DNA of 64,000 nucleotides from Welwitschia mirabilis (lineage: Eukaryota): positions 12,371,463-12,435,462 of the forward strand of contig JBOZIK010000001.1 of assembly GCA_051453625.1 (NCBI GenBank), given 5' to 3'. The position numbers and the translations under genes are program-made. Below the pieces are notes generated by a model that did no database searches, had not been told where the DNA came from, and worked only from the letters and a program-made list of their open reading frames with translations. Of this stretch, positions 1-43,078 are shown piece by piece (the stretch's first letter is position 1; each line of letters opens with the position of its first letter).

Positions 1-831
1 TGGTAAGTTTTTAATAGGGGATTGTGCATAATCTTTATTAAGAAGATCCGGGAAACACATTCCATCACATGGTAGAATATCTTTTGCTGAATATATTATC
101 AAACAAAAAAAAGAAAAAAAAGAAAAAAAGGAAAACACCACAAAGCTCTACTATAAGTGCACATGACAAATATTCCTAAGAGGGGCCTTGGTAGTGCAAT
201 ATGGTAACTGTGAGAACTCCACTAAGGGGTCATTTGGCCACAATCTAGATATAAAAGGGGGAACAAGAAATATACAGGTCCTTACTTCTTTAGTAGTGGT
301 TGCACTTTTCTCATTGTGATAAACTTAAGTTGTAAAAAATAAAAGTTGAGGAATACTTATATCTCAAGAGTCATTTAAGACATAGCTAATTATCAAAACT
401 ACAACTCTATCATAAATTTCAATCAAAAATTTAAAAAAAAAGAAAAGAAAAGGGAAAAAAGAAAAAGAAAGAAAGAAAAGAGACCAAAGAAGAAAAGAAA
501 TCAAAAGAGGAATATTCAAATTTGTGATGGAATGTGTATCCAAATATTTTCAATTGAATAGCATGCACAATCATTAAATTCTATTTTAACAAAGGAAAAA
601 AGTTTTAAAATCATTTTACATTATCTTAACAATTTGATAAATTATTTAGTTTGAATTTCTTTAAAGGAATTGATATTCCCATAATAAATGAGAATAGTTA
701 TAAGCAAAATTTATTTAAAATAAAGATTAAAAAGCTTATTAAGCCAAAGAGTTTATTACATCTAGTTATAGAAATAAAAACAAAAACATTTTCTAAGTTA
801 CTAAGAAAATAAATCAACCAACAAAAGCAAC

Positions 832-1504
832 TTAATTCTTGAAGTGACCAGAAAATTTATTCTTCCTGTTAGAACACCTAGTCTTGGAAGACCATCCCAT
901 AAAAGTATTACCTAGGGGTAGTAAATACATCTCACTTAGAGACTCAGATAACATATTGATCTCTTCTGGGTGAGCTCGCCAAAAGGTTTGGTAAGGCTTA
1001 GCATTCCATATTATTGTTTGAATTTTTTTCTTATCAAAACTTAATGTAGTAAGACTAAGCACAGGGTTTATGCCTTACAGTTGATCAACCTTTTCTCTAA
1101 TACTTACATCTGCCTAGCTAACTAGTCTAAAAAAAAAAATCATAAACTGAGTCTTTGTGATTAATTTACTAATGAAGCTCTTCATTCTCACCCTCAGATA
1201 CTTGCCTACTAATTCATGGATCATGGAACCAAAACTTGGGGGGATGACACTATTTTTAAAATGATCCTTGTCAGCCTTAGTAATAAAAGATTCTAAGGTA
1301 TTTAAGACCTCTAAAGTTGATTTGTAATCATAGTACAAGAACTACTATATCTTTTTTTTGGACCTAACCGAAATTTGAGGTAATTGGGTGTCTACCCTCC
1401 TAATGCACATGTTTATCTATGTGGAATCTGAATTGAACAGGTAGTATTTTACCTTTTTTGACACTCAAGGCAATAATGCAAGAGTGAGGGGTAATGCAAG
1501 CCAT
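832..1504 (-). pseudogene. Accessory ORF-A of element D (antisense to the element), about 220 codons, unknown family, frameshifted
   Basis: Track ORFs 1114-1338 and 832-1062 plus upstream INMCIRRVDTQLPQI align along their length with the translation of 15136-15740(+). ATG at 1504-1502. Confidence 0.75.
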
Positions 1505-2069
1505 AAGTATTAACTGAGAAAATAAGGAATAGAAGATTATTTAATGGAGAAATTCTAAAGCTCAAGTAGAGAATATGAATGATTAGCATAAAAGAATGAG
1601 ATTTATAACATAAGTATTCCTAGAATGACTAACAAGTGTGATTTTTTTTAAGTTACTTAGTGCACACGTGCTTAGTATTTAAGTAGAAGATTGTGTAAAA
1701 ATTACATACATGTTCTATCCAATAGATGAAGTATGCCAAGTATCAGCAATGATCTTTGAATAAGAAAATAATAGAGGAATTTTAAGCCGACTAACGTTCA
1801 ATTTGAAGTTGGAACTTTAGATTGATTTATAATTACTTTAGTTTTTCCTAAGCTAAAAGCCATTATAAGGATCCACTAAACTTTATCATTATTAATTACA
1901 TTGCCAAGTTATTAGTAAAACCTCGAAAATACTTTTAATTGAAAGAAGACCTTTAGACCATATTTAATAATGCAGAATTTTTTTCGCAGGGGAGCATAAC
2001 AAATAAAAGTTACCAACATTTTCCCTCTAAGAAGATATTATCATAAAATAGGCCTTGAAATTAAGTTTA

Positions 2070-2490
2070 TCCAGTTGACCAACACTTACTCAAAGCTAAA
2101 AATTTAAGTCAAATTTTGAGCGAACTTGATAAACATTGAGACTACATCTGCATAAGCCATCATTGCCTAGTTGATTGATACCAACTTAAAGGTAAACTTT
2201 AAGTCAGATTTTAGACTAAACTAATGTAATAAGAATCTTTAAAAAAAAAAAGATTTTGGCTGATAGTAATTCAAAGTCAAAACTTTGAGTTACATCTCAT
2301 GCCAACTTGATTGTCTTCTTGCATGCTAAAAACTTGTAATGAAACAATGATCACCTGGTTGATTAACGTCAACTCAAAGTCTAAACTTTGAGTTGGATTT
2401 CAAGCCAAGCCACCAAAATGCAAGTTCAAGAAGTTGACTAATACCAACCTAAAGCTAAATCTTTGAACTAGGTTTTAAATCGACTGCATT
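2070..2490. repeat. Degenerate tandem array of about 5 units with roughly 75-100 bp spacing in the ORF-A/ORF-B spacer
   Basis: Recurring gttga(c/t)..a...caac(t/c)(c/t)aaag..aaa(c)ttt(g/a)agt motif near 2074, 2170, 2258, 2358 and 2432. Confidence 0.65.
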
Positions 2491-3379
2491 TTCTTAAACT
2501 TATTTCTGAAGGGAGGGTCTTCTTATTGATGATTCCCATCAACTTTCAACTATATCTCTTTCACATGACATCACTTTTTTTATTCTTACTTTTTTCATTA
2601 TGATAAGTGACTAGAATTTGAAGGAATGCATCAAGAATTTGAGAGTTTTCTATTATTACCTTCAAATTCCTTCGACCAACTCCATAATGGATTCGACGAT
2701 TGTCATTAAGAACTCATCGAACCCGGTGTTGCAAAGAGTGACCACCACTTAAATATGACATTATGTTCCTCAATCATTACATTAAGCTTTTTCTTAATGA
2801 CCCTGGTCTCATTATTAATGATTGCATCACATGTCAGTTCCATGTCATCTAAACTACATTACCATCTGCAACATCACTTCTAAGTTAGCAGATTTTCTTA
2901 CTATTCACCTTACCAACATGTCATTCTATTCTCTAGTATTAGGAATGTTCTAAATAATTATAGTTACATCTATTTAGTTTCTAGTAAAAATTGTCATTTA
3001 GTCTTCATATGTGTAAAGTTAATACAATAGTAATTACAAGTATTTTTTCCTTTTTTAAATGGGAAATACATTAATAAATTTCACTCGTACCCTTGAATTT
3101 TACTTTAATCATGCTTGAGTGGTTTTTCGTATTTAAGCTCTTGAGTAATGGCGGAATACCTTCATGTAAAAATCTCAAGTATGGCCACAATTTTAATTTC
3201 AACATTCTCAAGAATGCCAAATTTAACATGGGAGCATAGTTGAATACACTTTTAATTTGTGAAAATGATGTTTTATATTCTTAGGAAGAAAAGTCTTACT
3301 TAGTAAGTTGTTTTCAAAGGTTTTTTATAAATAAATTTCTTTTTAAAGCACCTTTTTCCATACCTAACTATAATAATTA

Positions 3380-5674
3380 CAAAAATTTAACAAAATGTAG
3401 GATTATTTTTTCATTGAATTTAACACAAGTTCTTTTAGATTCCTGCTTAATTGAATTCAAACAGAGGATTGTCAAGCTAGGATGGTATGAATGGCTTACC
3501 CTAAATGACAGATTATCCTTAGAATTTATCTATGAATTTTACAAGAATTTAAGAAAAAATGATGCTAAAGGCATGCTATAAATAATGGTGAAAAATAAAA
3601 TAATAGTAATTACCTAAGAAAATATTAGAGAAATGTTGCATTTATCACTTAAAGAAAAATATATTGGTGATATTAGCAGAAAAGAAGACACAAATATAAG
3701 CATGAGTCTTCTAGGAAGGATGGCAGTGTAAGGAAGAATTTAAGTGAAAAAAGATACGGAATTTCAGTGAAAAAAGATACGGAATTTCAGTGAAAAAAGA
3801 GTTAAGTTTCCTGAGAATTATAGGGCACATGACCACTCAACTGAAACCGAGAATATCCTCTTCTGCCTCTTAGAGTCTACCATTGCTGCCTCCATCTAAT
3901 ATATTCCATGACCTAATCTAATTCACATTTTAAGAAGTCCTACCTTTCCATTTGCTTCAATATGATCAGTTCTCTAAAGCACTAGAGGAAGACAAGATGG
4001 ACAACCTTTGTAGTGCTTTGAACTTAATGAAAGATGAAATTCAAACCTATCTCGATAGAAAAGAGGAATTTTTAGCATTGAAAAGCTAAGTTGGTAATTT
4101 AAAAATTGAGATTGAATTCTTAAGACAAAGATTAGATCAAGAAAGGGAAAACAATGGAAAGCTATGCTGTAAAATCACTAACAAGGAGGAAAAAATTTAG
4201 CTCTTCTATGCTTTCAAAGATATGAGCAAAAAATTACAAAGAGCTTATAAATACATTGTTAAACTAGAGACTTCTACTAAGGATAGGGAAGAATTAGAGA
4301 ATCTTCCAAGAGAAAGACCAGACATGTTAGTATCCTTATTATAGAATTTAGCTTCAAGAAAGAAATATAATGCTAAATATATAGAGTATCAACAAACCTT
4401 CATTACATTTATGCATAATGAAGGGCTTGACCCCTGAACAAGGAATATTTATACAAAATCTACGTAGACCTATAGGTGATGAATGAAAAATTCATGAAGA
4501 TTCATGCAGAAGCTCAACAATATAAAAATAAATGGCTTAAAGCCTAGAATTATTTAGTATACTATCACTCCCTTTTAGATGTAAATAAGAAAGTCATGGA
4601 TCACATGATGGAAGAAAAAATAAGGCTCTTAAGAATTAGATGGGAGAGGAAAGCTCTTCTGATCAGCCTCTACAAGATTCCTTAATAAAACAAATATCTT
4701 CAAAAATAAAAGAGAAAATCAGAAGAATAGTAAATTCAATTCAGGGCATTTCCTTAACTTCTTTAACTCTGACTGCTGAGATTAAGAACAAAATAAACTT
4801 AAGTATTATTAATGCTTTAAAAGAATCTTATGTAGAGTTAAAGAAGAACATCAAAATAATAAGTTCTAAAGCTACCTAACTTATTATTCAGAATTTGGAA
4901 AAAAAGAATATGATACTGCTCCATGAGCTTTACCTTATGGAAGTAAAGTTGGATAAAAGAATTAGGTTTAGGCATGAAGAATTAACTGATTTACACAACC
5001 TTGACTAGTACCCCCAATAATTATATGACTTCATTAATAAATTTAAAGAATATTTAAAAAGTATTATTTATAAAACTTCTAGGAAATAATCAAATTTAAG
5101 CAAGAATTCAAAAATTTTTTGAATAACACTGCAATAAAATTTTATAAGATACTAGAAAAATATGAGTCTGATGTAAAAGGTTTTGTAGTGTCCTCTTAGG
5201 ATTTTTAATAGTTATATTCTTTTAGAGATCAAATTATATAGAATATGACTATGCTGGGAGGCACTTTTATCAATATTTTTTCAAAACTATAAAATAAAAA
5301 TTCTTCCAAAACATATATAGTCCCCTTTGGAAAAACTTCTAGAATAGAACTACAAGTTGAGGCAACTTTAGAGCCTGAACGTGTACCTAAAAGTCCCTGA
5401 AAAAAATCCTTCTAGCTCCGAAAAGAAAGAGAAAAAAAGTAAAGTAGCCAAAAGCTCCTCCATGAGGCAAAGGCAACGATAGAAACTTAGCTACTCTGGA
5501 GCAGATAGACACAGATACCATAGATATAAGTCATTCTACTCTTTAGAAGGCACATAGGAAAGTTTAGCTACCTTGAAACTGGAAAAATAATTTGTCCAAT
5601 TAGCCAAGAAAATGGAGGAATCAAAATCCAGTGAGGAGCACCCTTTTGTTTTCAAAAGGAGAAAAGGAAAATGA
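3380..5674 (+). pseudogene. Accessory ORF-B of element D (sense, 'env-like' position): plant-transposon-protein-like N-terminal domain, coiled-coil region, basic C-terminus; many stops
   Basis: LIEFKQRIVKLGWYEWLTLNDRLSLEFIYEFYKNL (about 3445-3550) matches track ORF 12529-12744. FITFMHNEG and the C-terminal QLAKKMEESKS are shared with the element C copy. Confidence 0.75.
3744..3800. repeat. Perfect 23-bp tandem repeat, 2.5 copies (GTGAAAAAAGATACGGAATTTCA)
   Basis: Read directly from the sequence. Confidence 0.9.
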
Positions 5675-5678
5675 TGAG

Positions 5679-5707
5679 TCTCTCTCTTCCTCTCCCTCTC
5701 TCTCTCT

Positions 5708-5744
<37 letters not shown>
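5679..5744. repeat. Interrupted (CT)n microsatellite
   Basis: Read directly. It explains the ERERER stretch in track ORF 5536-5865. Confidence 0.95.
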
Positions 5745-5747
<3 letters not shown>

Positions 5748-5797
5748 GTATATATTTATTTTCTAAGGGACTAATAAAACCTTGAGCTTGGGGGAAT

Positions 5798-7362
5798 TGA
5801 TAATGATTAATTATGATGTAAACTTTACTTATTAATGAAATGTTTTCATTTTTATAATTATGCATTTTAAAGAATAATAAATGTTTTTAAGTAAATGTAC
5901 TTACTAATCAATAGGTTAGTTAGTTAGTATGTTGGTAAGTTAGTGTATATATTTTATTATTTAGTTACAAGTACAGAATGCCATTTGGCATGAAGGTGAG
6001 AGAGAAGGCTAAGATGGTGAAAAAGTAGTAACAACCTCAATTATAAACCTATACCTAAGGAGAAAATNNNNNNNNNNNNNNNNNNNNNNNNNNNNNNNNN
6101 NNNNNNNNNNNNNNNNNNNNNNNNNNNNNNNNNNNNNNNNNNNNNNNNNNNNNNNNNNNNNNNNNNNNNNNNNNNNNNNNNNNNNNNNNNNNNNNNNNNN
6201 NNNNNNNNNNNNNNNNNNNNNNNNNNNNNNNNNNNNNNNNNNNNNNNNNNNNNNNNNNNNNNNNNNNNNNNNNNNNNNNNNNNNNNNNNNNNNNNNNNNN
6301 NNNNNNNNNNNNNNNNNNNNNNNNNNNNNNNNNNNNNNNNNNNNNNNNNNNNNNNNNNNNNNNNNNNNNNNNNNNNNNNNNNNNNNNNNNNNNNNNNNNN
6401 NNNNNNNNNNNNNNNNNNNNNNNNNNNNNNNNNNNNNNNNNNNNNNNNNNNNNNNNNNNNNNNNNNNNNNNNNNNNNNNNNNNNNNNNNNNNNNNNNNNN
6501 NNNNNNNNNNNNNNNNNNNNNNNNNNNNNNNNNNNNNNNNNNNNNNNNNNNNNNNNNNNNNNNNNNNNNNNNNNNNNNNNNNNNNNNNNNNNNNNNNNNN
6601 NNNNNNNNNNNNNNNNNNNNNNNNNNNNNNNNNNNNNNNNNNNNNNNNNNNNNNNNNNNNNNNNNNNNNNNNNNNNNNNNNGAAGGCTAAGATGGTGAAA
6701 AAGTAGTAACAACCTTAATTATAAACCTATACCTAAGGAGAAAATAAAGGAAACAAAAAAATAGAGAGAGGTATAAGAAAGGGATCACCATAAAAGGTCA
6801 AAATATTTTTGGCAAAAGGCTTTAGGAATAGATTCAATAAGAATGTCAAGAAGGGATCTCTGGCCATTTTGTAAAGGGTGTAGCAGCATCTTCAATACTT
6901 TAAAGTGTTACTTGCAAAGGAAAACACAAGCCTTAGTGCATCTTTGTGTAACATTTGGTATTTATATTAAGCTAAAAAGCTACATTTTGAGTATCATTTT
7001 ATGCATGTTCTATCACTTAAAAAAGTAATACTATTTTTATTTACTCCTTTTTGTGCAGCTGAACATAAACCAAAATAATTAATAATACTTAGAAATAAGT
7101 ATTATTTAGTATTTCATCAAATTTATATCATATTCTACTAATTTCTTTATTTCTTCCTACTTTAGTATATGTACATAACAACTTAGCGATAATAAAGTGA
7201 CTTGACTAGTTTAAGTAACTTCATCATGATATTATCATGGTGATGCATTTTGAATAAATGGTTAAATCTCAACTAGTTCTCTAGTAAGCCTTTGATGATT
7301 TTTATTTAAGATGTGAGCTTAGTTTAGGTTAGCAATAGCATAGTTTCTGCATTTTTTCAACA
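5798..7362 (+). repeat. 3' LTR of element D (TGAT...AACA; includes N-gap 6068-6681)
   Basis: Preceded by PPT-like GCTTGGGGGAAT. Distantly similar to the reverse complement of the element C LTRs (e.g. TTAGyATGTTrGTA, CAAGTACA, TAGCATAGTTT near the end). Confidence 0.7.
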
Positions 7363-7687
7363 CTGTTCTCTATTATTTTGTAATATTTTTTGCATTTATT
7401 TCACCATATAAGCACCCATAACATAAGCAAGGTGAGGAGGTATTATTATTATTTGTACTTATTTTTACAATGATAGATTTACTCAATTTTGCTTAAATTT
7501 TGAAAATTAAATTTTCTAGGATACTTTTCCTTTAGCTTATGATTTTTTTTATATTTGTCTAATTTATGCTCTAAATTATTTGTAGTCTACGCGAAAGTAA
7601 AAAAAAGTAATGGACGAATTGAATAAAACTCAAAATGAAAATAAGAAAGTGTAAAAATTATAATCAAATAAAGCCATCTTCATATAA

Positions 7688-7989: not shown

Positions 7990-8958
7990 AACTTCTAGGT
8001 CTTTCTCTTTGATTTGTAAGTCTTTCATGAACTATTAAAATTTATTTTCTTTAATTGACTTCATAAGTATAGCTGCTACCTGCCATTGGATGTTGCTATA
8101 GTTTAGATGGATGAAATCTTTTAACTCCTTAATGTAATGAAACTTAAGTTGAACACCCTTCATCCTTTTGTGAATTATCTGGTTCTTCACTAGTTTTATT
8201 ATGTTTTAACTATGACAATGGATGGAAATAGGAGTTCATGCCTTTCATGAAGATTGCTTAATATTTGATGAATTCATTTAAATTTGTAACATAACATTAT
8301 TGCTATAATACATTCTAATTTGATGGAGGGAAGTGCAGTTGTCTTCTATTTCTACTTAACCATGAAATAGTATTTCCATGAAGTTAAGTAATATAATTTA
8401 TAGTTGATCCACTATCTTCAGCATCTACCTAATATAAATCTATGTAACCAACTAAACTTTCTTTACTTTTACTAAAGATTATGCTATGTTTCATCATTCT
8501 AGCTAAGTACTTCAATATATTGATCACCAACTTCATGTGTGTTTTTTCCTAAAGAATGCATGATTTTGGTGAGTTTATTAATAGAAAGCATAATATTTAG
8601 CCTTGTATTCATCAAATATATCATCTTGCATATTATCTTTTAATACTTCATGGGATTAATTTTTTTTTGACTACTTTATTAGGATTTATATATGTACTTG
8701 GCCCTATAGGATTATTTCATTGTTAATAGTTCTTCAACTATTATTAATAAAGTATTTTATTAGTATGTTTTAATGTTTCATTGTTTTGTAATATTTGAAA
8801 TCCTTAAAAAACAATAGATAAAAAAAGAACTTAACAGCTCCAAGATTTAATATTTTAAATTTTTAACTAAGGGCATTTCTAACTTCCCTAATCTCTTTTT
8901 CACACTCACTTATTAATATTATATCATCAACATAAAGTAATAGTATGACAAAGGTTAG
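7990..8958 (-). pseudogene. Ty1/copia element G: RT C-terminal half and RNase H remnant
   Basis: Minus-strand LTFVILLLYVDDIILIS (YVDD catalytic motif, about 8910-8958) and KGVQLKFHYIKEL...QVAAILMK (decayed KHIDIRYHFIRE...ADILTK). Confidence 0.9.
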
Positions 8959-9900
8959 TGTTTAACAAAATATGCATAAGCATTACAAAACTATGCACTA
9001 AGATTTTAGAAGTGTAAAACTACTAACTTAAAAACTAGCTTTAATCATTTATTTAACAAGAAATCAAAGGATTCCTAAAAAGCTACTTAATATAGTTAGA
9101 TCTCTAACCAACGTAATTGAAATTGCATTACCAAGATTAAGTCTTGATAAAGGTCAACTTGAATAACTTAGGTTGAAGATTGATACATTTCAACTATGTA
9201 CATGATAAACATTATTAAGCAGAGAAATAAAAAGCATCTAAGATAAATATATTACTAGAACAACACTTATTTCTAAGTAGTTCTAATTATCCTAGTCTAT
9301 GTTTGGTTGCATATATAGGAACAAGAAAAAGTAAACACTAATTTTTTAAGAAATTTTAAAGTAGAACAACATAAAGGATAACTTTATAGTTTTATACTAA
9401 TTTCAATGCTGTAAGGCAATAATTATATAAAAGATAATTGATGAAAATCAATGTTTTCTTTATAGGTAGTGCTAGAATTGGGAAATATACTTGTAACACA
9501 TTTTTAGGGATGCACTAGCTCCTTAAGGTTATTGCCATGAAAGATCTTAGTAAAGCATTAATTATAGTTGCATTTCCTTACTAAAAGATTCCCTTTGCCA
9601 TTGGCCTCTTCTCCTTATACCCTTCTCCCTAGTTTCTCATTAGCTTGTTCTTTTTATTTCTTCTCTAGTATAGCTATGTGTGTTAGGGTATTCTTAAATT
9701 TTAGCTCATCCTTTCTACTATTCATCCTTACATAAATTGGAATTTGTACTTGCAATCGCTATTAATAATAATATATGCAATTCTAACTACTAACATGCTA
9801 ACATAATATTACTAACTAAATAAAATACTAAGTATATTAACTTTTAGCATTAAAACATTTTAACATATAACAAAAACATTCAGAGAATTTATGATCATCA
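8959..9900 (-). repeat. 3' LTR of element C
   Basis: TG...CA termini (TGATGATCAT...TAAACA on minus). Alignable end to end with 22189-23080. Confidence 0.9.
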
Positions 9901-10009: not shown

Positions 10010-12800
10010 TGTAATTTTTAGTACTTTCCTATGATTTAGATTCTATCATTTCCCTAGTTAATTGGGCCAAATTCTTTCCTACTTGATTTTAGCCAAGAAC
10101 TTTCTTTATTCCTTTATTAGAGTCAGATCATTTACCTCATGGTTTCTAATTTTTGGTTGAGGATCCTCTTTCTTTACATCTATCACTTGATGTAGCTCTA
10201 ATCTACACTGGTTCCTTCCTTTTTCTCTTAGAAGTAGAAGGATCCTTAGGAACAAGAAACTATTCTAGCACTATTTCATTCCTTGTACTATCTTCCAAGT
10301 TTGCTCAATTAGGATAGGATAAACAATGATGTTATTTACCTCCTTCATTTTATTAAAAATATCTACTAAAGTGTCCCTCAATAAATTCATATTATTTATA
10401 ACTCAATATCTGAGTAGATAAGATTGTTGTAGCTTTTAGGATGATATTGAAAATGATTTTACATACATGCTATAAGTGCTAGAAAGGGGTCTACCTCCTA
10501 ATTATATAGATAGGGAGAACGATACATCTGCTCTACATTCTTTTATTACTTTATAAAATTGGGTAGATGTGTTACTTGTAAGGCTATGAGCTTATTCTAT
10601 AAATAATCCAAGAACCTTTTATTTAAATCTACTCTTTAATTTATTCAACTTTTTACTACTAGTTTTAAAATCTCTCTACATATATTCATCAATCCTCTAG
10701 AAGTCTTCTAAATTACATTGTCTAATTGTTCTTAAAGTTTATCTATAAAATGATATAACTTCTAGGAGTAATAGTCTAGACATTGGAACACGGATATTTC
10801 TAGTGTCTAAATATTAATCTTTTCCCTACTATGACCTTTATGGTTCATAATTCATGCAATAACCCCAAGTTTTATTTTTGTAAATTTTTAATTATTAACT
10901 ATGTTGATTCCAAAGATATTAAATCTAATGTTATTTCTTAGATTTGTAAAGGATCTCTCAATAAATTCTTTTATCTATTTTTCTACTTCTGAAACTAATG
11001 TCTAGTGCTTATTTATTTTAAATTCTTTATCTTCTTAAGAAATTATTTAATATGGATAGAAAATTGCCATCCAATTCATGACTATTAGGATTTCATCAAA
11101 ATGATCCCTTATTAAACTTACCAGTTCTTGAACCTCATTCTTAACCTATAATAAAATTGACTCTAATGTGGAGTCTTTAAGAGCAGAAGTAGAAATTAAT
11201 TTTTCTATAGGAATAGTCCCTTTTAATCTACTCTTGAAAACTTGATTCTCTTATAGAATCCATTCAACGGTTCTCTTATTACCATTTAACATTGCTTCAT
11301 AGGAGTTGTTCAGGTTCAAGAACTTTATTCACCTTTGTTTATAATTATGGAAATCGCTTGAGTCTTTATATACTTTTAATTCATTTCTTATATATTCGTG
11401 TATATGTTCTTTAAATGTTCTATGTTTAGATGAATATGTCCTTCATTATGCATAAATGTAATAAATTTGTTTAATGTACAATATACTCAACATCATATTT
11501 CTTGGATGTGGTCATGTTCTACAGTAGAGAGACCAATACATCTTTCTTATTCATTCATAAAGCTTGAGGAGCATTCCTTTCATCTAAAGCTATTTCTAGC
11601 TTTGCTTTTTATTCATATGCCATTTTCAATTTCAAATTGGCCTCCTTATAAGCATATAAAAAGTGAACTCTTTTAGTTTGCTAGTAATATTCTACTAAAA
11701 TTTATTACTTCTTTCTTTTTCTTAATTCAATTCAAATCCCAAAAATTCATTTCCAATTTTTAAACATGAATTCTAATTTTTTAACTTTGATATATCATCC
11801 TTTATCTTGCATCTCATTCTTAAAGAGTTCAAAATACTACAAAGACTATTACTCTTATCCTCTTCCAAGGTCTTGGAAAATGATTATGATTAAGAAGAAT
11901 ATATGCAAAAGAGCTATTATATAGTGAATTATATTGGATCTGATTCTTTCACTCTTATAGCTATTTGAAGTAACCTTATGCCTTGAGGGATAAAAGAAGT
12001 TTCACTAGGCCTTATATGGGAGAATCCCTATAATGAACTCTGTTCTTGCATTAATTTCAAAATACTTAACTCTTTTACTTCAAATAAAGATTACATAGTT
12101 AGCTTTATGCAAGGCCTATTTACTTTAGGATTTATTACCATTTTTTCAAGAGTTCTTATTACTAAGAAAGGGAATCCTATTTTAACAACATCAAAAACTT
12201 TGAATTTTTTCATCTTGATGGTGTACCTTATCAAATCTTGAAAATTTTCTTCACCTATATTAACATTTTCCTACTTTGTTAAGTTTCTAATAGCTTTTGC
12301 TAAATACAAACTAGTTAAACTTATTTCTTTTTATTTATTAAGAATAGGGACTAGGTTACTCACCACAATTCTAGTAATTATAAATAGTTTTGACTCTACA
12401 TTTTTCTCAAACTCTACCTTGCCCTCTTTATTTGAAAGTTTTCATAGAAAAATCATAATTAACTCAGTATCTTCCTTCCCAGTAAAGCTTTTAATGGACC
12501 CTTCCTCTCTTAGAAATTGAAGGATATTTCAGATATCCTCTTGGAAGAAAACCACAATTATACTATTAATCATTGCAATCACTATCTTCTCCTCCTCAAT
12601 GTAATCCATATTTTTATAGAATTTAAAAATAGTACTTGTACTATACTTATCAGTTAGGGCGAGCCACTTCCACCACCCTAATTTAATAATTCTTTGTTTA
12701 AACTTTGACAAATAAGGGTTAACAACTAGTTTCTCAAAACTCACAGAAGAGATTAACTTACATTCATAAATAGATAAGTTTCCTAAAGTTAGATATATTC
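10010..12800 (-). pseudogene. Accessory ORF-B of element C (sense to the element), about 900 codons when intact
   Basis: Track ORF 12529-12744 (KFKQRIIKLGWWKWLAL...FKFYKNM), FPFLVIRTLEKM, FITFMHNEG, PSTSKRKRKEP, NLAQLTREMIESKS. Homologous to 3380-5674(+). Confidence 0.75.
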
Positions 12801-13190
12801 TTGTTTGAATTTAAATTAAAATAAGATAACCTATAACTTTAATTTTTGTGAATTAATTCATGCAAATAAATAATAATACACTTAAGTGATTCATATTTTA
12901 AAGTAAATTGATATTAGAAATACTTATAATAATTCAACATTTTCTTAAAATTCATAAAAGAGATTATCTCATGTTTAGAAATAAATAACTTTCTTAAAGT
13001 TTGATAGATCCTTATTTGAATTTAAATTCAAATAAGATAAACTCTATCTTCAATTTTTATGAATTCATTCATTCAAATGAATAACAATATACTTGAGTGA
13101 ATTCATATTTCAAAGTACATTCATGTTAAAAATGACGTGTAATGATTCAACGTTTTTTGAGTTTTATGAAATATGAAATTATTGTTATTG
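12768..13190. repeat. Diverged tandem duplication of about 210 bp at the 5' end of ORF-B
   Basis: AAATAGATAAGTTTCCTAAAGTTAGATAT... (12768) versus AAATAAATAACTTTCTTAAAGTTTGATAG... (about 12979), collinear for about 190 bp. Confidence 0.8.
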
Positions 13191-15135: not shown

Positions 15136-15740
15136 ATGGTATTACACTACACTAACATTTCCATCCCTCCTCCTCCTCCTATTGCAATCTCTAGCATAAA
15201 GAAGATTAGGTAATGCTATTTAAATTTTTATTAACTTAGATCAATATGTGTATAAATTGTGTAGAACTTATCTTCCCATAAATTGCTATTAAGATGGATA
15301 ATGTGATTAAATCCTATTTATATTCAAGTTATAAATTAGTGCTAAGGTTTTGGACATACTACAATTTTTCATCATGAAGGATAAAAAATATATATTTTAA
15401 AATGGAATCATTCCACTCTGCTTTAGGACTATGATCCACAACTTCTACTTGAGGCTAATAATTGAGGAATTATTTTACTTAATTAAGAAGATTAAACTTA
15501 TAGTGTTTTCTTAGTAAAAGATTTGATCAACTTCAAGGAAAAAATCCTGTCTAAGTTTAAATAAAGAGCATATGAAAAAGACCATATGGGCTTCTAAGAG
15601 GTATAATAACTGTTAAAATGATCATCCAATTAAAGTACAAATGATTGTTAAAAATCTGAGTACTACCTTCCTCTTTAAGATCCTTAGAGACTAGGAGGTC
15701 CAATAAGAAGAATAAATTTACTGTATTTTTTATGAGATAT
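15136..15740 (+). pseudogene. Accessory ORF-A of element C (antisense to the element)
   Basis: INMCINCVELIFP; SAKVLDILQFFIMKDKKYIF*NGIIPLCFRTMIHNFYLRL; DQLQGKNP; TIWASKRY...HP; TRRSNKKNKFT. Each block matches the 832-1504(-) translation in the same order. Confidence 0.75.
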
Positions 15741-16569
15741 CTTTCTATTACTTCTTATGCTTTCATATTTAAAAACCCTATGCTTTTAATTTTTGATAGT
15801 GCCTTGATGCTTTGTGTAACAAAATATTTTCTTAATAAAAATTTGATATTTTTGAATTTTATCAAAGAATTTCATTTATATATAGATGATCATATTAATT
15901 TATTTAAAGAAAATTATTTATTGCTAATTTAATATACCACCTTCAAATTCATTTAGAAAACGACAAGAAATCAAGAAGTTTCCCTTGTTGCTTTAATGGA
16001 AAATTAATTGCTATACACTAATTTTAGGTTAATGCTCTTAATCCACATTCCATAATACTTTAAAGTAAAACCTTTTTATCTTTCTTTTACATATACATAT
16101 TATTTTTGTATTATGCCATATTGACTTAGCTGACATTAGTCCATTGTGATTATGTATAGTCTTAGTCACTAGCTATGTCTTAGATGATACCTAGGATGCC
16201 ACTATTTCTTAAACCATTTCTTATTACAAAACTCAACTTTTACTCATAATAAGAAGAGTGAAATCACTATCAGAGGAGTAAGGATCTATAGGATTAAATC
16301 TAGATCATGGCCAAGTAACCTCCTATTGGAGTTCTTACAACTATCATATTGTCCTAATAAAGAACCTTCTTAGGAATATTTGGCTTCATGGACTTACGAT
16401 AGAACATTTTTATTTTGATTTTTTAAATTAAATATCATAATATATACATACATTAATATTGATGTAATGCTATTAAATTTCTTAACAAATGATGAAATGC
16501 ACAACTTCATACTAATGAGTTATTAAGTTGAATTCAATTATTTCCAACTAATCTGAAATTTATCCTTAG

Positions 16570-19500
16570 CAATTTAAAAAATTAACAAATGAAATAAACT
16601 TTAAACGTTTGGTATATTTTATTATGATATATAAAGTGGGAGTATCCTCTCCACTTTATAAGAATTTCCTAAGTATTCTAGTAAAGTCTTAAAGTCATTA
16701 TACATTCTTAACCTTTACTCACAAAGTTGATATGTCACTTTTTCATTAGGGTTAAATATGTTTATGGCTCAGGTTCTTATAATTTTATTTATTTTATAAG
16801 ATTGAAGCTAATTCTATTCATGATTTTATTTTAAATAAAGATTTTTAGAATCATAAAAAATTACTGAGTCTCATATCTTAAAATTGGTTTTTTTAATTTT
16901 ATTATAATGAAATATTTTTGTTTTCCCTTGGATTAACTCTTTTCTTAAGAGAGATTTTATTCTATTTTCATCTAAAATATTTATATATTAAATACATTCT
17001 TCTTCATCTCTATCTAAATTGCAGTTTAATTCCTTAGCTAAAGTTTTTATTTTAAAATGAATTGATACTATTTTACTTTCTTATAAATTAACTCGTATAA
17101 TGTGAATCCAATACTATTTTTTTAGGTTACTCTATAAGTCACACAAATCTTCATTTAGTTTTTTATCCCACTCTATTTTATTTATATTTATAGTTTTTGT
17201 AAATATTTTGTTTAATTATTTGTTTGTTGCTATAGCTTAACCATTGGATTCAGGATGCTAAGTAGTAGATAGTTCATGATGAGCTCCATACTTGAGTAAG
17301 ACTTTACTAAAAATCTTACTTGTAAAATGGATTATTCTCTTACAGATGAAATTCCTTAGTATTTTTCAAATTTGTAAAAAATATTTTTGAGAGAAACATC
17401 AATAATAGTTTGAAAATAATAATAAAAGATAATCGTAGCTTTATCCACTTAGTTAAGTAATCAACATGGACTAGAATATGTATCTTTATATGTGATGAAG
17501 AGTTAATAGATCGAATAAAATCAATATCATACACATTAAAGAATTTAATTAATTAAATTCATTGCTATCATATTTTTAATTTCTAAGTAAACTATCTTTT
17601 CTTTCAACACTTATCACAACTTTGAACATAGGTAAATGAGTCCTTAAATATTATTGGCTAGTAGTACTATATATTAAGAATTTTCATTCTTGATCTTCTT
17701 GTACCATAATTTCCTCTAAATTTTTCATCATGTGCTTATTTAATAATCTGTTTTTGCAAATCTTCTTCCACACACCTTCTAATAATGTGATCTTTACACT
17801 ATCTGAATAAAGTCTTATCATGTCATATTTAATTTTTGACTTCTCTTAATATTTTTAATCTTTTATAGCAATTAATGTAAGATGATAAATTTTTAGAGAC
17901 TATGGAATTAGTTACATCAGCCTACTAGTAATTTATTTAAACTTTCAAAATATGCTCATTGGGAAATTCAGTTTTTACATTTATTTATTCTTATTGATTG
18001 CAAAACTCTAGTCTTAAAAGATGATGATCTACTACATTTTTTGTTTCTTTTCCATCGATAATTTTTAGGTTGAATTCTTGTATTAATAATATCCATCTCA
18101 TAATTATTCAATTTACTTTCTTTTTATTCATTAGAAATATGATAGCACTAGGATCAGTGTATACTCTACCTTCATATCTTATAATAGAGTACCTAAATTT
18201 TTCTAATGCCATTACAATTAATAATAATTCTTTTTTAATTATAATATCATTATGTTAAGCTAAATTTAAATTTTTAATAATATAAGAAATGACATACGGT
18301 CTACTCTCATCATCTTTTTGCATTAAATAGCTTTCATAGCATGATTAGATGCATAAATCATAACGTTTAATGGTTTTGACTAGTTAGGCCCTTGTAAGAT
18401 AAGTTCTTTCATTCCTTAACCTTTTAAGGTTTGAAATAGGATCAGGAATCTTAACCACTTCACTTAATGTTATAAGACAAAATATTATCCACCTTACCTA
18501 CCACTGCAAGCCAAAGAAATCTAGTTGCTTCAACCTTAAATTACTCTTATAAAAGGGCTAAGCCCCTTTATTGTCTTCATTTATTCATGCTTGGTGATAG
18601 CTATACTTTAGAGTAAAGGTGATATTTTTCCATGCCATGCTAAGCTCCCTTTGGAAGTGGATTATTCTTAAGGATAGCCTGATGAATCTCTATCAAATGT
18701 ATTCTTCTATCATGGATGTAAGAGATCTACTTTATTTTAATGAAATTGTAGTTTCGTTTTTAATTTAAGTTATAATTCACATTGTACTTTAAATGCATAA
18801 ACTAAACTATTTATTTGTCAACTATCTATGTTTTTGAGTGAATCCTTTTGCTTATAATTTTGTTTAGTAGTTCATATATGTTTGATGATCTTTATGCATT
18901 AATTTTTTAACTTTTGATACTTACATTTGGACTATAATAGATAAAGTTTCATAAAGATCTCACCACTACTTATGTGATGAATGAGATTATATCACCATTA
19001 TTTACAACTTAGTAACTTGGCATCTTTTAAGATTAATTAAGAAATTTCACTATATTTAGAAAGAAACTTCATTTGTTAGATGATTAATGGTAGTTCTTAA
19101 AGAGTTAGTTTAATTTGTTCCTTTTCCATTTTAAGTTTTTCTTAATACTCCTTCAACTTATAGTTTACATATTTTTTATAAATATTTGTATGTTTACTTA
19201 TATTTTTGGCTATTTCCTTTGTCCCTGAGAAAAGAACAATAACTAGGTCCTCATATAGTTTTATTATAAGCTTGGTTAGGGATATTATACCTATTAAGTT
19301 CATCTAAAAAACTATGATCTTGGTGTCCTAGTATCCTTTATAAGATTTAACTACCAAGGATAAAAGAATCATAAGTAGCAACATTCAATATTCTAAAATT
19401 TATGCAAAATATCAATTTATTTCCCTTTTTGGATACCACAGTAATAGGCTGAGTTACTCTTGATCTAATATAGAATAAATGAATTCTACATCTTAAATTT

Positions 19501-22075
19501 TAGTTATTTTTTGCTTATTTAATTTTTGCATATGTGGGTTAAATATATTTTAGGTTGTCTATTTTATTTAGTTGAAGGATTAAAATAAATCCCATTCTAA
19601 AAAATCCCTAGATCTATCCCTTTAATATTAGTATGGTCTAAAGCAAAGCTTCTTTTCTTTTAACTAATATTCTCTTAAGTTTCTTCTTTAAAGAATGAAT
19701 TAAATTACTATTAATGATTAAGGGTTTATTACAAGCTAATTCTATATATTCTAAGCCCTCTTTAAGTGGAGATTCTTTATTTATTAAGGTTTTAAAGTAT
19801 CTTATTTATATTTTTCATCATTTTTTTATTTAAATACTATATGAGGTTCTTAATCAAAATAGCATTAGCCCTAGCTTCAAAATTAGATATTATTTTCTCT
19901 ATGATAGTAGCATCTAATAATTTGATCTTATTATTAAGTTATTTTAAGCTCATTTTCATTACCCTTTTTATACAATAGATGGTGTCATTAATAGTAATCA
20001 TCTATGATCTTCCTAACATAATTGCATGTGTGTCTTCTTTAGTTTTCATTACTAAAGAGTCAATTAAATAAATGAACCCTTAAAGCTTAATAGATACATC
20101 CTTAAGACTCCTTTAGGTGTAACTGTCAAATCATTTGTTGAATAGACTTTTTCTTGATAAGGTGTTAGTTTTGATTTTTTTAATTTTTCATAAGTTTTGT
20201 AAGCCATCACATTAATACTAGCTCCTAGATCTATTAAAGCTTCTAGCTTTACCTTATTATTTACTTTTATTCTATTATGAGAATTCTTGGAATATTTTAT
20301 TTTTCATGTTATTTATTATAAATAACTTGCATAGAGGTATAAGAAAGTTGATCTTTCTTAATCATTTCTGTTTATTCTTCTTTGATTTTCTTTATATTCT
20401 ATTTCTTAGATTACATGTTCTTCATTTATCTCCACTATGTGTGCACATCCTTTAACATCTTTGTAAGAGTTAATGAGATTATGGTATTCAATAAAGCTTT
20501 GGCTAAATACTCCAAGTTCTTTTTAACTTTAACTTGCTTAATTTATCTAATTATCATTGAAAAGGGTAAAGATTACAATTACTTATCTACTATTTGTTCA
20601 ATTTATATATTAGTTTATTCTTGTATAGACAGGCTACTTGAGTATTTTTTCTTTTAGGAACCCATTCTATTGTCATAGGTTTTCTTGAGATAATATAGCT
20701 TTACTAGTGGCTTCTGTTGTGTAGGGATTTTTCCTTCTTTTTTTTCCTTACTTCTTGTTTATTTCTATTATTTTCTTAATCTTTATCCTCCAATTCCTAT
20801 AGTAATCAAAATGGTATTATCTAATAGAGATTACATATCTTTGCAAAGGTTTTTCTAGTTTCCTTTCCATTTTTTATTTTAGTAAGGTATGATTTCTTTT
20901 TTTCCTGGGGCTGATTTTCTAAATTTAAATCTAATATATTTATATCTAATTACTAAACAAATTCTTAGATCCAAGGATATTCTATTCCCTCATGATCATC
21001 TTCTTTATAATGTTCACAAATAGAACTTTCTTTCCCTTACAAATGTTGTATAGCTAATTAATTGAACTTTCTATCATAATATTAGTCACCTTTTTGGCTA
21101 CCTCTTCGACAAGATTGATATTCTTAGAGATATAAATACTATCTTTTGTTTTAGATATTGAAATCACTTAGTTTTTGCTTTTTTCATTTTCTTATCCCCT
21201 TCATTGTCTTATATTACGAAATTTACTGATTGGTTTACATGTTTCTTGTAGATTCTTAGTCTTAATACTTTCCTTAAATAATAATCCTAACTTCTTTAAT
21301 GTTTGGTTTTGTAGTTCTCTAAGAAAGGTTTTAATACTTTCTTAGGTTGAGATTTTATGACAAGAACCTTTAGTTAGTAATATGTTATATCTATCCATGA
21401 ATTCATCAAATCTTTTATTATCTTTCTACTTAATGTTCAAGATTTATTCCCTTAAGTCTTCAACTACTCTCATGGTATAAAATTTATCTTAGACAATATT
21501 TTTACAAACTTCCAATGAGGTGGCATGATTCAGATTTTTATGATATCATAATTGATATTCCTCCTTAAGAGAAATAGGAAAACATCTTAGTTAATTAGAC
21601 TTTAAGAGTAGATAATTTTATTTTTAAAAGGAATTAAATAAGCTTAAATAAAGTGAAGGCTCTTTAGAATTCTTTCCTTAAAAAGTGGGTATAGAGTTGA
21701 TATTTGTATACCTTACTTTCTTAGGAAATTTTAGAGCATTAAGGTTAATGGAGCTTAAATATTCTAGCTAATGAGTATCATAATTTAAGATCTAGAATCT
21801 CCATCATATTTCTAATAATAACTTGCTGAAAACATATTTTACTATGAGCTTCTTGATTATTATAATTCTTTTATCTTACAATATTCTTCTTGAATAAAAG
21901 GTGCTTGAGAAGAGTAAATAGTCTATGTTCTATCTCACTCATAAGTTAAAAAATTTCTCCTTAATAACCTATTCTAGAGTGATTTCATCAGCTTCTAAGT
22001 CTCCTTCTATCTCTAGTTTAATTTTTCTTCCTATCTAATTCTATAGATCAAATTCTTCGAATATTTAACATACCT
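16570..22075 (-). pseudogene. gag-pol of element C (retrotransposon gag, aspartic protease, partly deleted RT, RNase H, integrase)
   Basis: Gag LRCFPISL (about 21570). Protease ALIDLGASINVM (about 20205-20245). RNase H MALEKFR...VYTDPSAI...RWILLIQEFNL (18050-18215). Integrase DFI...ILVHVDYLTKW (track ORF 17340-17534) and PESNG. Confidence 0.92.
18393..19006 (+). mobile_element. Solo-LTR-like insertion (about 614 bp) between RT and RNase H of element C
   Basis: TGTAA...TTACA inverted termini, TATAAAAG at about 18548, interrupts pol, shares motifs with 47290-47490. TSD not recognisable. Confidence 0.65.
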
Positions 22076-22172: not shown

Positions 22173-22188
22173 AAATAATAAAAGTTCT

Positions 22189-23080
22189 TGTTTAATAAAA
22201 ATATTCACAAGTATTATATAACTATGCACTAAATTACTAGAAATGTAAAATTGCTAATCTAAAATCTATGTTTAAGATATATTCTGTAAAACTAGTTAAG
22301 ATTGTTAGATCTCCCACTAACTTCATTTGAATTGCATTTCTAAGATGAACTTTTGATAAAGGCTGGCTTGAATAATTTAGATTAAAGATTAATATATTTC
22401 TAATATGTATGTATTAAACATCATTAAAAGGAAATAATAGAACACATTTAAGATCCTATTTCTAAGCATTAATAATTATCCTAACATATGTTCAGTTGCA
22501 TACATAGGAGTAAGAAAAACTAAATATTGCTTTTTCAAGGAATGTTAAAATAGAATAACATAAAGTTTAACTTTTAAGTTATCCATTAATTTCAATGCTA
22601 TAATACAATAATTATATAAGAGATAACTAATGAAAATTAGTTATTCCAGAACTAAATCTAGGAAATATGCCTATGATGCCTTTTCAAGAATGTACTAGAT
22701 CTTTAAGATTACTACCTTGGTGAATTTCTAGTAAAGTACCATTTCTAGTTTCCTTTCCTTCCTAAAATATGCTCTTTTTCTTTAAGCTTTTATCCTTATA
22801 TCCTTTTCCCCTAATTCCTTATTAGTTAGATCCTTTTTTGTATCCTCTAGAATAGTTACATTTGTTAGGTTATTCCTAAATTTAGCTTATCCTTTTTATC
22901 CTTTGTTCTTATGCTAAGTGGAATTTGTATTTACAATGGTTATTAATAATAATGTACATAATGATAACTACTAAAATACTAATATAATATTACTAACTAA
23001 ATAAAATACTAAGTATATTAATGTTAGCATTAAAACTTGTTAACATATAATGAAAATATTTATAGAATTTATGCTTATCA
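22189..23080 (-). repeat. 5' LTR of element C
   Basis: TGATAAGCAT...TAAACA on minus. Partner of 8959-9900. Confidence 0.9.
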
Positions 23081-26221: not shown

Positions 26222-26685
26222 TGTAGGCATAAAATCCACATATTAATAACCTATAATATTTCAATATCTAATTCGCACAAACACATAGTAGTATAGGGAG
26301 TCAAGCCTAATATCGTAAACTAGTGAGTAATTTAATGATTATCTAAAAAATAAATTAATTCAAATAAGGAAGTAACTTATATCCTTTTCCAATTAAGCAT
26401 GAAAATGAAATAATGATGAAATGATGAATGACATGAAATGGATGTGAAATAAAATGAAATGAAATGTAATGAACTAAAACGCAATACTATGAAAATGAAA
26501 TGCAATTCCTAATGCAATCAATAAACCCAAATTAAATATCTTGTTATGATCAAGCTAGCCCTAATATTCTATATCAAAACCAATATTAGTGTAATTAAAC
26601 ATAAATTAATTCCCACATAAAATATAAGGTGGAGAAGAAGAATAATTAAGTGAATACAAAATAACTATATTAATCATATTGTAAT
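26222..26685 (-). repeat. Fragment of an Athila-type LTR truncating copia G and itself interrupted by Sirevirus A
   Basis: Starts TGTAGG. CGCACAAACACATAGTAGTATAG and GAAAT/GCAAT-rich tracts resemble the LTR end of element F (52207+, 62094+). Confidence 0.5.
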
Positions 26686-29600
26686 TAAGGATCATTGAAC
26701 TCAGAGGGGAGGGGTGAATGAGTTCTACCAAATAAAAAATTTAACTAATAGTTAAATAAAAAAGTAAAATAGTAAATACCTTACTAAGATAACGTGGTTT
26801 CCTAACCTGGGTATGTCTACACATAGATAGTAGCTTCCCCTCACACCTCTAAATATTCTTAACCTACAAGAAAATAGGGATTTTTTGGTGCACCATCAAT
26901 CTTATAACAATGAGAGTATCCTTGCAAGGTAGAACTCTCTTCCCAACAAGGTAATAGTGGTTTTTCAAGTGCATCACAAATCTTACAATAATGAGCAACA
27001 CTCTGTTCCTCATAGAGAAATAATGGTTTTCTATCTGACCACTAATCTTACAATAAAGTAAGTACTCATAGGTACAATATCAATGCACACCCATATAAGG
27101 GTTGCCTTATAATAATTTTTGTAATATGAAATGAACTCACAATAATATTTAAAAATAAGATAGTCCAATAATGTAAGATCTACAAAAACAAACAACAAGA
27201 AGCATAAATGATATAGCTATGAAGAGAGCTTGAGTTCCTTATTGTCATTCTCATCAAAAGTGCAAGTAAATGATACAATAATGTAGGATCTAATAGTAAA
27301 TGATGTAGCACTAAAAGCTTGTTTGCAAATGATAGATTTAATTTTTTGTGAGAAGCTCCAATTACTCATGCATTCTTCATTTCATAAGATATTTGATTAT
27401 TATATGCAAAATAAGTATGATCATTGAAATACCAAAATTTATTTATTTATCTTATGATGTGGAGCATTTATATTATTGAAGAGAAACTAGCTATTTAACC
27501 TTGAAGAGTAGCCATTTAAACTTTGTAACTACTATGTAATGGATATAAAATGTTTAGGCATTAGACACACATCTTTGTTTTTAATCAATGTAAACTTTAA
27601 TTCAAGACATGTTTAAATTTTTAGATATTTACTAATAGTTAGATGTCTTCACCTTATAGACATCTTCAGTAAACTTACATAGAAATTGATCGAAATTAGT
27701 CTATATAATATTTAGACCTTTGTGATCATGAATATATGATGTAAAGGTTGATAGATCTCTTGAAACATAAAATATTAATGAAAATGAAAAATGACTCTGC
27801 ATGTAAACATCTTCATCTATGTCTAGTTAAACTTTCAACATAGCCGTCTTCGATAAGATAGTCATCTTTAACCTGTGACCTAAAAGGTGGTACATCAAAG
27901 ATATCTTTAATATGTATATGTCTTCACTAGAAATGTCTTTAATTGTCTAGACATCTTTACCATAGATGTATTACATTCTATAGATTTCTTCAGATAACTA
28001 ATTTTTCATTTTAATAATTAAAAATTTTCATGAGATATTGTTCTTGAAGATCCATCATTGATTGTGCTTATCATGATTTAATTTTCTTTACAATGGCTTA
28101 TCTACATAATGACATAAAATATTTGATAAGTGAGATCATTAAAACTACATTACCAACAATCTCCTCATTTTTATTGATGTCCAAAAATTGGCAAATCTCA
28201 TTAGGATAATCTCATTTGATTAACTAAACTTAGATAGTCATATTTCAGAGAAATGTACATATTCAATTTTTATAATGATATTGAAGAAACAAGATATTAA
28301 CCACTTGAATAACAGATAAAGACACATAAACATTTGATAAATTATGACATTAGACATTTGAATAAGCATGTAGGATAATAGGAAAAAGCATAAAAACATT
28401 TATTAATTGCATTTAAGAATATTGACAATTGATTAAATATGATATGCTAAGAGTAATATCCCAAAAATAAAATTAGAAAATGGTATTTAACTTATGTGCC
28501 ATTAATACATATGCTCGTGGTGATGTGCTAATACTAGAAATCATAGAATGTTATAATAATAAGGTGCTATTAGTATATAATATGAAGATAATGAAATATA
28601 TGTTAATCAATAAAAATTAAAGCATAACATTTTAAAAATGTGCCAGTAATAACATGATATTAAAACATGAGGGTGTGTCAGAAAAAGTGTGCTAACAAGT
28701 AATAATGGTAGAAGTAATAGAAGACATAAAGGTATGCCAAATAACATGAGTGATCATCAATAAATAATGATGACACTTAGGGATCCAATCTAACATCTCA
28801 TAAATTAGTAATCCATGCCTAATAGGATGTCGTCAAGTTGAAAGCTGATGTGCCTGACTGAATGTAACTGATCTATCTAACCAATTTTCCAAAACTTCTT
28901 CCCCTTTTCAGATAGCAAAGAAAAGGATCTAATCACTAAACATAGAGTCATCATATAATGTGTATCATATCCTTCTTTGTTAGTATACATCTAAGCTCTT
29001 AGACTCTATCTCTGGCTGCTACCTCTACTATGATAGATTAGGAGCTTATTGCTCCCTCTATACTTGTGCCTTCATGGGATGTAATCCCCTTGAATATTCT
29101 TACTGCTAAAAAAATCCAAGATGTCTTTCGTAGTGAAATCTAATAAAATTAGATTTAAGAAATCCTTGGAAAGAGATACTTATCGAGTGACGACTTCGAA
29201 ATGAGATTTGGTGGCTCCTTTTCTAAATAAATAAGGTTAAAACCCTAGTTTTTTAATGTAATTTAATTTCTATAATAGTATAATCAAGATGTCTAATAAT
29301 CTACTCTAAAGATATTTATAAATCTAAAGGTGTCTCTCTTATAGATATCTACAAAACTAAAGATGTCTATAATAAAAGATCCAAAAACATTGAAATATTC
29401 TACAACTAATGCAATCATAATAATAACACTTCAAGAAAGTAAAATAACAAGTATATAATTTAAATTTTACTACTACATATAATAATAATCTCAATTCATA
29501 AGATAATTGCAATTTGGAGTTGACTAATCAAATGATATTACATCTTACCTTACCTGATTGGGTAAGGCTCAATTTCCAAATTCCTATATAGATTTATATA

Positions 29601-30649: not shown

Positions 30650-31040
30650 AAAGCTATATATATTATATTGTATTAAATTATATTACTGTATTGTAACATA
30701 TTGTATTATACTTATATAATATTATATTAGATTATGTATTGTATATTAAATTATATTACATTACAAGCACATTATATTATGTTGCATAAACATTATATTA
30801 TATATTATATCATATTAAATTATATTGCTTCTATATTAAATTTTACTTATATTATATTAAATAATATTTATATTTTATTATATAATATATTATATCATAC
30901 CATATTATATTATATTACATGTATATTACATATAGATTATATTATATATTATATCATATATAATATATTATATATATGTTATATTATATTATATTATGTG
31001 CATAATATTTTATTATTTTATATTATGTTGTCTCATATGC
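30650..31040. repeat. Low-complexity degenerate (ATATT)n tract
   Basis: Read directly. It explains the Y/I/L-rich track ORF 30734-31060. Confidence 0.85.
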
Positions 31041-43020: not shown

Positions 43021-43064
43021 NNNNNNNNNNNNNNNNNNNNNNNNNNNNNNNNNNNNNNNNNNNT

Positions 43065-43076
43065 ACTCTGATATCA
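43065..43076 (-). promoter_or_regulatory. tRNA-iMet primer-binding site of element B (second copy at about 44769-44780)
   Basis: Minus-strand TGATATCAGAGT versus canonical TGGTATCAGAGC, 2 bp from the LTR. In the second copy it is followed by the gag start MEGVSSIK. Confidence 0.85.
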
Positions 43077-43078
43077 TT

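Follow-up and report, generated by a model that had tools for sequence, protein, structure and literature searches.

Among plant Ty3/gypsy retrotransposons, antisense additional ORFs (aORFs) have been described in the interval from pol to the 3′ LTR, with examples in Grande (gene23), RIRE2, Retand, and PvRetro13 (PMC7264820). In the part of that source that deals with them, such ORFs are reported to lack similarity to database proteins and to be without a known function, and some have been localized to the nucleus (PMC7264820). In the Retand lineage, antisense ORFs are reported in all surveyed clusters, and TRP28 in 97%; the regions between pol and the 3′ LTR span 2,933–6,566 bp, a DNA-binding or regulatory role has been proposed for the antisense TRP28 ORFs, and the sense ORFs are described, in the sections of the source that cover them, as having no known domain (PMC11963269). 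Another relevant system is Athila 14 of sunflower, for which the corresponding portion of the source describes a sense 3′ aORF(+) with Transposase_32, together with a 70-aa ORF(−) that has one predicted transmembrane helix (PMC11728184).

The DNA considered here is a 64,000-nucleotide stretch of the Welwitschia mirabilis genome (assembly GCA_051453625.1, contig JBOZIK010000001.1, positions 12,371,463 to 12,435,462 of the forward strand), referred to below as the window. It contains, in two copies termed C and D, an open reading frame, ORF-A, that is most probably a decayed antisense additional ORF of an old Ty3/gypsy LTR retrotransposon family. Because ORF-A lies between pol and the 3′ LTR, runs opposite to gag-pol, carries a coding signal, and is conserved in 2 of 2 copies, it would be classed as an additional ORF of the aORF-3R kind.

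How does this locus compare with the described systems? Like maize Grande gene23, rice RIRE2, Silene Retand, and Phaseolus PvRetro13 ORF2, ORF-A is antisense, is located between pol and the 3′ LTR, specifies a small basic protein, is conserved between copies, and has no similarity to database proteins; the likeness is one of description (position and orientation) rather than of sequence similarity. Unlike these ORFs, ORF-A adjoins a sense extra ORF, here called ORF-B, across a spacer of ~1.9 kb. The Retand lineage also has a long pol-to-3′ LTR region with an antisense ORF, the TRP28 ORF, but ORF-A gave no match to PF04195, and ORF-B is weakly Transposase_32-like, whereas the Retand sense ORFs have no known domain as far as the relevant sections of the source describe them (PMC11963269). 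Athila 14, in the portion of the source that concerns it, is similar in that a single Ty3/gypsy element has both a Transposase_32-like sense ORF and an extra ORF on the minus strand; it differs in that its ORF(−) is 70 aa long with one membrane helix, whereas ORF-A is ~192 aa long with no membrane-like segment, and in that Athila 14 carries Transposase_32, whereas the match here is below the Pfam cut-off and found in D only (PMC11728184).

Two inverted copies of a Ty3/gypsy element

The two copies of the element are inverted with respect to one another and collinear over ~7 kb (D from 1 to ~7430, against C from ~16550 to 8945). Copy C is identified as a Ty3/gypsy LTR retrotransposon of ~14 kb on the minus strand, because a pair of LTRs brackets minus-strand pol domains (Table 1). 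Copy D lies on the plus strand and is identified, by its homology to C, as the 3′ portion of another copy. The start of the window truncates D ~140 bases past the end of pol, a distance obtained by interpolation, and this is why pol is visible in C alone. Past the LTR ends (~7430 in D and 8945 in C), there is no significant similarity between the copies relative to shuffled sequences. Both LTRs of C begin with TGAT, and a purine-rich stretch precedes the 3′ copy. The pol gene of C is itself decayed. For example, the RT is so heavily decayed that Pfam RVT_1 gave no match in C pol at E ≤ 0.01. A read-through of the RNase H–integrase part has one weak database match, a 1405-aa protein whose pol domains are of gypsy type.

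The order of the element is 5′ LTR, (gag), protease, RT, RNase H, integrase, a non-coding block of ~0.3 kb, antisense ORF-A, the ~1.9-kb spacer, sense ORF-B, and 3′ LTR, with ~6.8 kb separating pol from the 3′ LTR in C (16691 to 9900). ORF-A is found at the same place in both of the copies in the window. It lies tail-to-tail with pol and in the opposite orientation: in C, the minus strand carries pol and the plus strand ORF-A, and D is the mirror image. The K2P distance between the LTRs of C is 0.296, and that between D and C within ORF-A is 0.595. If D and C are of similar age, about half of the D–C divergence would predate insertion, and hence would have arisen while the lineages were active, when selection could act.

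The element sits in DNA that is AT-rich, with a GC content of 17%–30% per 2 kb and window-wide base shares of 0.35 for A, 0.38 for T, 0.14 for C, and 0.13 for G. CpG depletion is strong (observed/expected ratio of 0.15 across the window, with 0.91 for TpA) and is of the type that methylation and deamination of cytosine would be expected to leave in old repeats; the pattern is not RIP-like. RIP-type mutation was considered as a source of the AT-richness and is unsupported, given these two ratios and the near-equal numbers of transitions (1235) and transversions (1309) among the substitutions between D and C. The assembly is a draft riddled with gaps, and the window contains 31 runs of N. At many of these gaps, the sequence before the gap recurs after it with 90%–98% identity. 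This suggests that the gap-flanking repeats are not real duplications but the two haplotypes of a heterozygous genome, placed one after the other in the assembly. Fragments of copia and gypsy type are also present elsewhere in the window, as are several copies of a separate repeat family (Table 1). A search of the whole window against Rfam gave no match.

Table 1. Positions of the features in the window, numbered from its first base
Feature	Copy	Position	Strand	Basis or remark
5′ LTR	C	22175..23080	−	Pairs with 9900-8945
3′ LTR	C	8945..9900	−	72% identity to 22175-23080 over 960 columns
Decayed pol	C	16691..20303	−	Profile matches and motifs
Protease of pol	C	20067-20303	−	Asp_protease_2, E = 5.2e-4, below cut-off
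RT-like piece of pol (presumed)	C	19350-19499	−	Motifs, by eye
RNase H of pol	C	18072-18335	−	PF17917 (RT_RNaseH), E = 6.3e-13, 49.2 bits
Integrase zinc domain of pol	C	17598-17768	−	PF17921 (Integrase_H2C2), E = 1.3e-5, 25.6 bits
Integrase core of pol (presumed)	C	17343-17552	−	Motifs, by eye
Integrase C-terminus of pol (presumed)	C	16691-16915	−	Motifs, by eye
3′ LTR	D	5800..7430	+	Homology to C 3′ LTR; contains N gap 6068-6681; limits approximate, interpolated from BLAST coordinates
Conserved non-coding block	D	124..401	+	Downstream of pol, past the 3′ end of ORF-A; C counterpart 16157-16424
ORF-A	D	832..1410	−	ATG 1410-1408; 192 codons plus TAA 832-834
ORF-A	C	15246..15743	+	ATG 15246-15248
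ORF-A pieces, in two frames	C	15338-15511, 15516-15551, 15569-15691, 15660-15743	+	
Spacer between ORF-A and ORF-B	D	1411..3284		~50% identity to C
ORF-B	D	3285..5140	+	Sense additional ORF; three frames, many stops
ORF-B	C	10640..12810	−	Sense additional ORF, decayed; tblastx/tblastn to D ORF-B, first block E = 1e-18
Two adjacent copia-type RT fragments		38249-39099	−	107-aa and 134-aa ORFs; duplicated across N gap
Two long ORFs, presumably of another retroelement		58110-59379	−	59059-59379 and 58110-58463; by eye, look like a zinc-knuckle gag piece and a protease-region ORF, respectively; no relation to the D/C family by tblastn
Separate repeat family		26441-28284, 33082-36538, 43064-46292		Several copies, 61%–90% identity
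Repeats flanking N gaps (examples)		30969-31394 / 31497-31927; 34668-35499 / 35700-36538; 49605-50396 / 50497-51285		
Repeats flanking N gaps (further examples)		59697-60833 / 60935-62069; 6004-6067 / 6682-6745		

Codon-level evidence for ORF-A

The ATG codons of ORF-A in D and C align column-for-column. The conserved ATG gives 192 codons, or ~192 aa, which shortens the ~220 aa proposed in an earlier note on this DNA; the ATG at 1504, taken as the upper limit in that note, is out of frame with ORF-A. Four in-frame stops interrupt D ORF-A (codons 22, 23, 99, and 112), and the minus-strand frame 832-1341 contains two internal stops. The pieces of C ORF-A fall in two frames, and C must therefore have acquired frameshifts besides stops. 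Judged by these lesions, both copies are pseudogenes. The four D/C peptide pairs quoted in the earlier note are all present, in frame 832-1341 of the minus strand in D, and in C in plus-strand frames starting from 15338, 15516, 15569, and 15660.

The similarity between the two copies is well beyond chance. Their nucleotide identity is 62% (422/684). The nucleotide local score of 39 compares with 14.1 ± 1.4 for shuffles (n = 200, maximum 20) and 15.1 ± 1.7 for real segments of the window (n = 200, maximum 21), and the protein local score of 119 compares with 30.5 ± 4.9 for shuffles (z of ~17.5 for DNA and ~17.9 for protein). When D ORF-A was searched against the window with tblastn, the sole match with E < 0.1, besides D ORF-A itself, was C ORF-A (E = 1e-7).

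Evidence for coding comes from the distribution of mismatches among codon positions in a MAFFT alignment of D with inverted C. Over 832-1341, mismatches at codon positions 1, 2, and 3 number 54/142, 40/142, and 77/141 (χ2 = 21, p = 2.8e-5), in what is a single pairwise alignment of ~60% identity, with saturated synonymous sites and indels that are not multiples of three. The order 2 < 1 < 3 is the classic coding order, and since position 2 is the most conserved, the pattern agrees with coding on the minus strand rather than the plus. The signal continues in the same phase over 1342-1452 (13/37, 25/36, 12/37; p = 0.002), so that a frame-consistent coding signal spans 832 to about 1452. In a sliding scan, the phase signal is limited to 841-1560, which corresponds to ORF-A and shows one phase throughout, and 3361-5160, which corresponds to ORF-B. 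Three non-coding controls show no codon-phase bias: 1-831 (p = 0.49), 1561-3280, within the spacer (p = 0.54), and 5141-6060 (p = 0.99).

Comparison of the six frames over 832-1341 (139 aligned codons) gives the same picture. Stops in the ORF-A frame number 1 for D and 2 for C, compared with 10–16 and 7–18, respectively, in the other five frames. Identical residues number 56/139 in the ORF-A frame versus 40–46 in the other five, and the BLOSUM62 sum is 259 versus 46–133. The Nei-Gojobori pN/pS ratio is 0.42 in the ORF-A frame, compared with 0.59–1.25 in the other frames and 0.78–0.92 in non-coding DNA; the ratio for the best block of ORF-B is essentially equal, at 0.43.

Is ORF-A a single exon? 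Spliced models with an upstream ATG were considered for D (ATG 1504, GT donor 1452, AG acceptor 1311) and for C (ATG 15136, donor 15210, acceptor 15339), and were rejected even though they are in frame in both copies. First, chance alone puts 10 of the 48 donor/acceptor pairs of D in frame. Second, the putative intron, 1311-1452, carries a signal in the ORF-A frame (16/47, 31/46, 17/47; p = 0.0015). Third, the putative exon, 1453-1504, shows no codon-phase signal (8/17, 8/18, 8/16).

Could these patterns have arisen without a gene ever having existed? Homology at the DNA level between two non-coding stretches of AT-rich sequence might, as a by-product, yield both an open frame and matching peptides. 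Indeed, D/C identity outside the ORF is similar (about 50%–60% in general, and 72% in the non-coding block 124-401, the best-conserved DNA shared by the copies), weak tblastx matches occur in several frames, and there are long open frames elsewhere in the window. Of 87,858 stretches of 170 codons, 0.45% contain at most three stops; these fall in 13 regions of the window, some of low complexity, so openness by itself is insufficient evidence. By-products of homology would not, however, account for a codon-position bias in the classic order that is absent from three flanking controls, a single nearly stop-free frame out of six that is shared by both copies, or a pN/pS ratio below that of non-coding DNA. 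The absence of a gene is therefore extremely unlikely, and the data support the view that ORF-A once encoded a real protein. The earlier note had named codon-position bias between the copies as the test that could refute its coding claim; the claim survives that test, with the six-frame stops and pN/pS in agreement, and the same three lines of evidence bear out the broader idea that the retroelement carried a protein-coding sequence opposite in strand to gag-pol. The sample consists of two copies, both of them pseudogenes, with no intact ORF-A among them. A two-copy codon-phase test can recover such a gene even when the copies are ~40% diverged and ridden with stops.

The predicted protein and its possible relatives

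The ORF-A read-through has a pI of 9.94, with 30 K+R versus 15 D+E. As the earlier note had suggested, the C-terminal tail is basic: the last 25 residues of D include 6 K/R and 0 D/E, and 28 residues of C include 7 K/R and 1 D/E. Within the tail, the motif TR(C/R)SN(R/K)KNKF is conserved, and is basic in both copies. The maximum 19-residue Kyte-Doolittle hydropathy of ORF-A is 1.22, with no membrane-like segment. An env-like protein of the sort found in plant endogenous retroviruses was considered and rejected, given the antisense orientation, this low maximum hydropathy, and the lack of a transmembrane segment. An AF2 model built without an alignment has a mean pLDDT of 46 and a pTM of 0.29; it shows low-confidence, all-helical secondary structure and is unusable.

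Searches for relatives of ORF-A were made at the level of families, proteins, and structures. Pfam searches with hmmscan, run up to E = 10, assigned no family to the ORF-A read-through, to three pieces of C, or to any of the three frames in D or C, and TRP28 (Transposase_28, PF04195) in particular has no match in any frame of either copy. The separate ORF pieces likewise gave no Pfam match. The earlier statement that ORF-A matches no gag, pol, or env motif is thereby borne out and extends to Pfam families. A phmmer search of 1.84 billion representative proteins found no genuine relative of ORF-A. The sole match (E = 1.5e-6) was dismissed as spurious, being to a tandem-repeat protein over five stretches via a short WAHPE-like motif. 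Two stop-free pieces of ORF-A were compared with the ESM Atlas and gave no useful match; one scored 0.85 to helical-repeat proteins, with low recognition, and the other scored 0.92–0.95, almost entirely to unnamed clusters.

These results bear on two further explanations for ORF-A. The first is that ORF-A is a very divergent member of a named antisense-ORF family, either Transposase_28/TRP28 or Grande gene23/RIRE2, with decay masking the kinship. Its position and orientation equal those of the named ORFs, the pol-to-3′ LTR region is very long (~6.8 kb, compared with the 2,933–6,566 bp given for Retand in the relevant part of PMC11963269), and the heavy decay of both copies lowers the sensitivity of the searches. 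However, a Pfam search as permissive as E up to 10 gave no such family, PF04195 is unmatched in all three frames of both copies, and 1.84 billion representatives yielded no genuine phmmer match, making membership in a named family rather unlikely. The second explanation is that ORF-A is a captured (transduced) fragment of a host gene, an antisense passenger that was of no service to the element. Gene capture by LTR retrotransposons is documented, in the part of PMC7264820 that treats it, and ORF-A is without a retroelement motif. Against capture, no host-like relative appeared in the phmmer or ESM Atlas searches, and ORF-A holds its position in both copies, which differ by a K2P distance of 0.6, with purifying selection between them. 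We consider a host origin very unlikely.

The suggestion in the earlier note of a novel retroelement protein family stands in part. ORF-A does appear to be a retroelement protein without a match to a named family; its kind, on the other hand, is already described in plant Ty3/gypsy elements, at least in the portions of the literature that deal with additional ORFs (PMC7264820, PMC11963269). At the level of sequence, the two decayed copies make the ORF-A family at most a candidate for a new one.

Neighboring sequences and a proposed role for ORF-A

On its 3′ side, ORF-A is followed by the conserved non-coding block, which shows no codon-phase bias (p = 0.38) and may be a cis-acting element of the retrotransposon. 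On its other side lies the spacer, without a codon-phase signal, which we infer to be the site of a putative antisense promoter. Beyond the spacer, ORF-B shows codon-phase bias in three blocks (p = 0.016, 2.9e-5, and 6.8e-4). The N-terminal part of D ORF-B has a weak match to Transposase_32 (PF20167; E = 1.7e-4, 21.9 bits versus a cut-off of 45 bits); the score is weaker still in the 700-aa ORF-B read-through, and C ORF-B has no match to PF20167. The rest of ORF-B looks like a coiled coil. ORF-B gave no match in database searches, whether queried alone against longer proteins or, in a two-row alignment, against those of comparable length. Antisense to C ORF-B, on the plus strand, is a long open frame, 11894-12616, that has 1 stop in 170 codons and includes a 92-aa ORF (12242-12520). 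Instead of being a gene, this frame may simply reflect the codon composition of ORF-B.

What would the product of ORF-A have done? If ORF-A is an antisense additional ORF, as we think most probable, then it would have encoded a protein of ~192 residues, kept by purifying selection, while the family was active. After insertion, both copies would have decayed neutrally, gaining stops and, in C, frameshifts as well. Transcription was probably from a promoter of its own in the spacer, divergent from ORF-B. The product would have been basic (pI of about 9.9), probably all-helical, and free of membrane segments, with a conserved basic patch at its C-terminus. These properties would fit a nuclear or nucleic-acid-binding factor with an accessory or regulatory role in the retrotransposition cycle; the function, promoter, and nuclear localization proposed here for ORF-A are drawn solely from analogy and composition. 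A similar accessory or regulatory role has been proposed for the Grande gene23 and Retand TRP28 proteins, in the sections of the sources that discuss them (PMC7264820, PMC11963269).

A more far-reaching possibility is that ORF-A founds an unnamed family of accessory proteins that is unrelated to TRP28/gene23. Such a family would belong to Athila-like plant elements in which a bidirectional control region, located internally, drives a divergent gene pair, with the antisense basic protein and the sense Transposase_32-like coiled-coil protein as two non-canonical factors acting together. We offer this as a tentative proposal, and a somewhat doubtful one. The value of ORF-A would rise only if intact relatives were to prove that there is a distinct, widespread family; alone, it opens no new question. 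Extra genes in antisense orientation are widespread in plant LTR retrotransposons, functionally unexplained, and usually missed by annotation pipelines. To these, ORF-A adds an example of an antisense ORF that adjoins a sense Transposase_32-like ORF.
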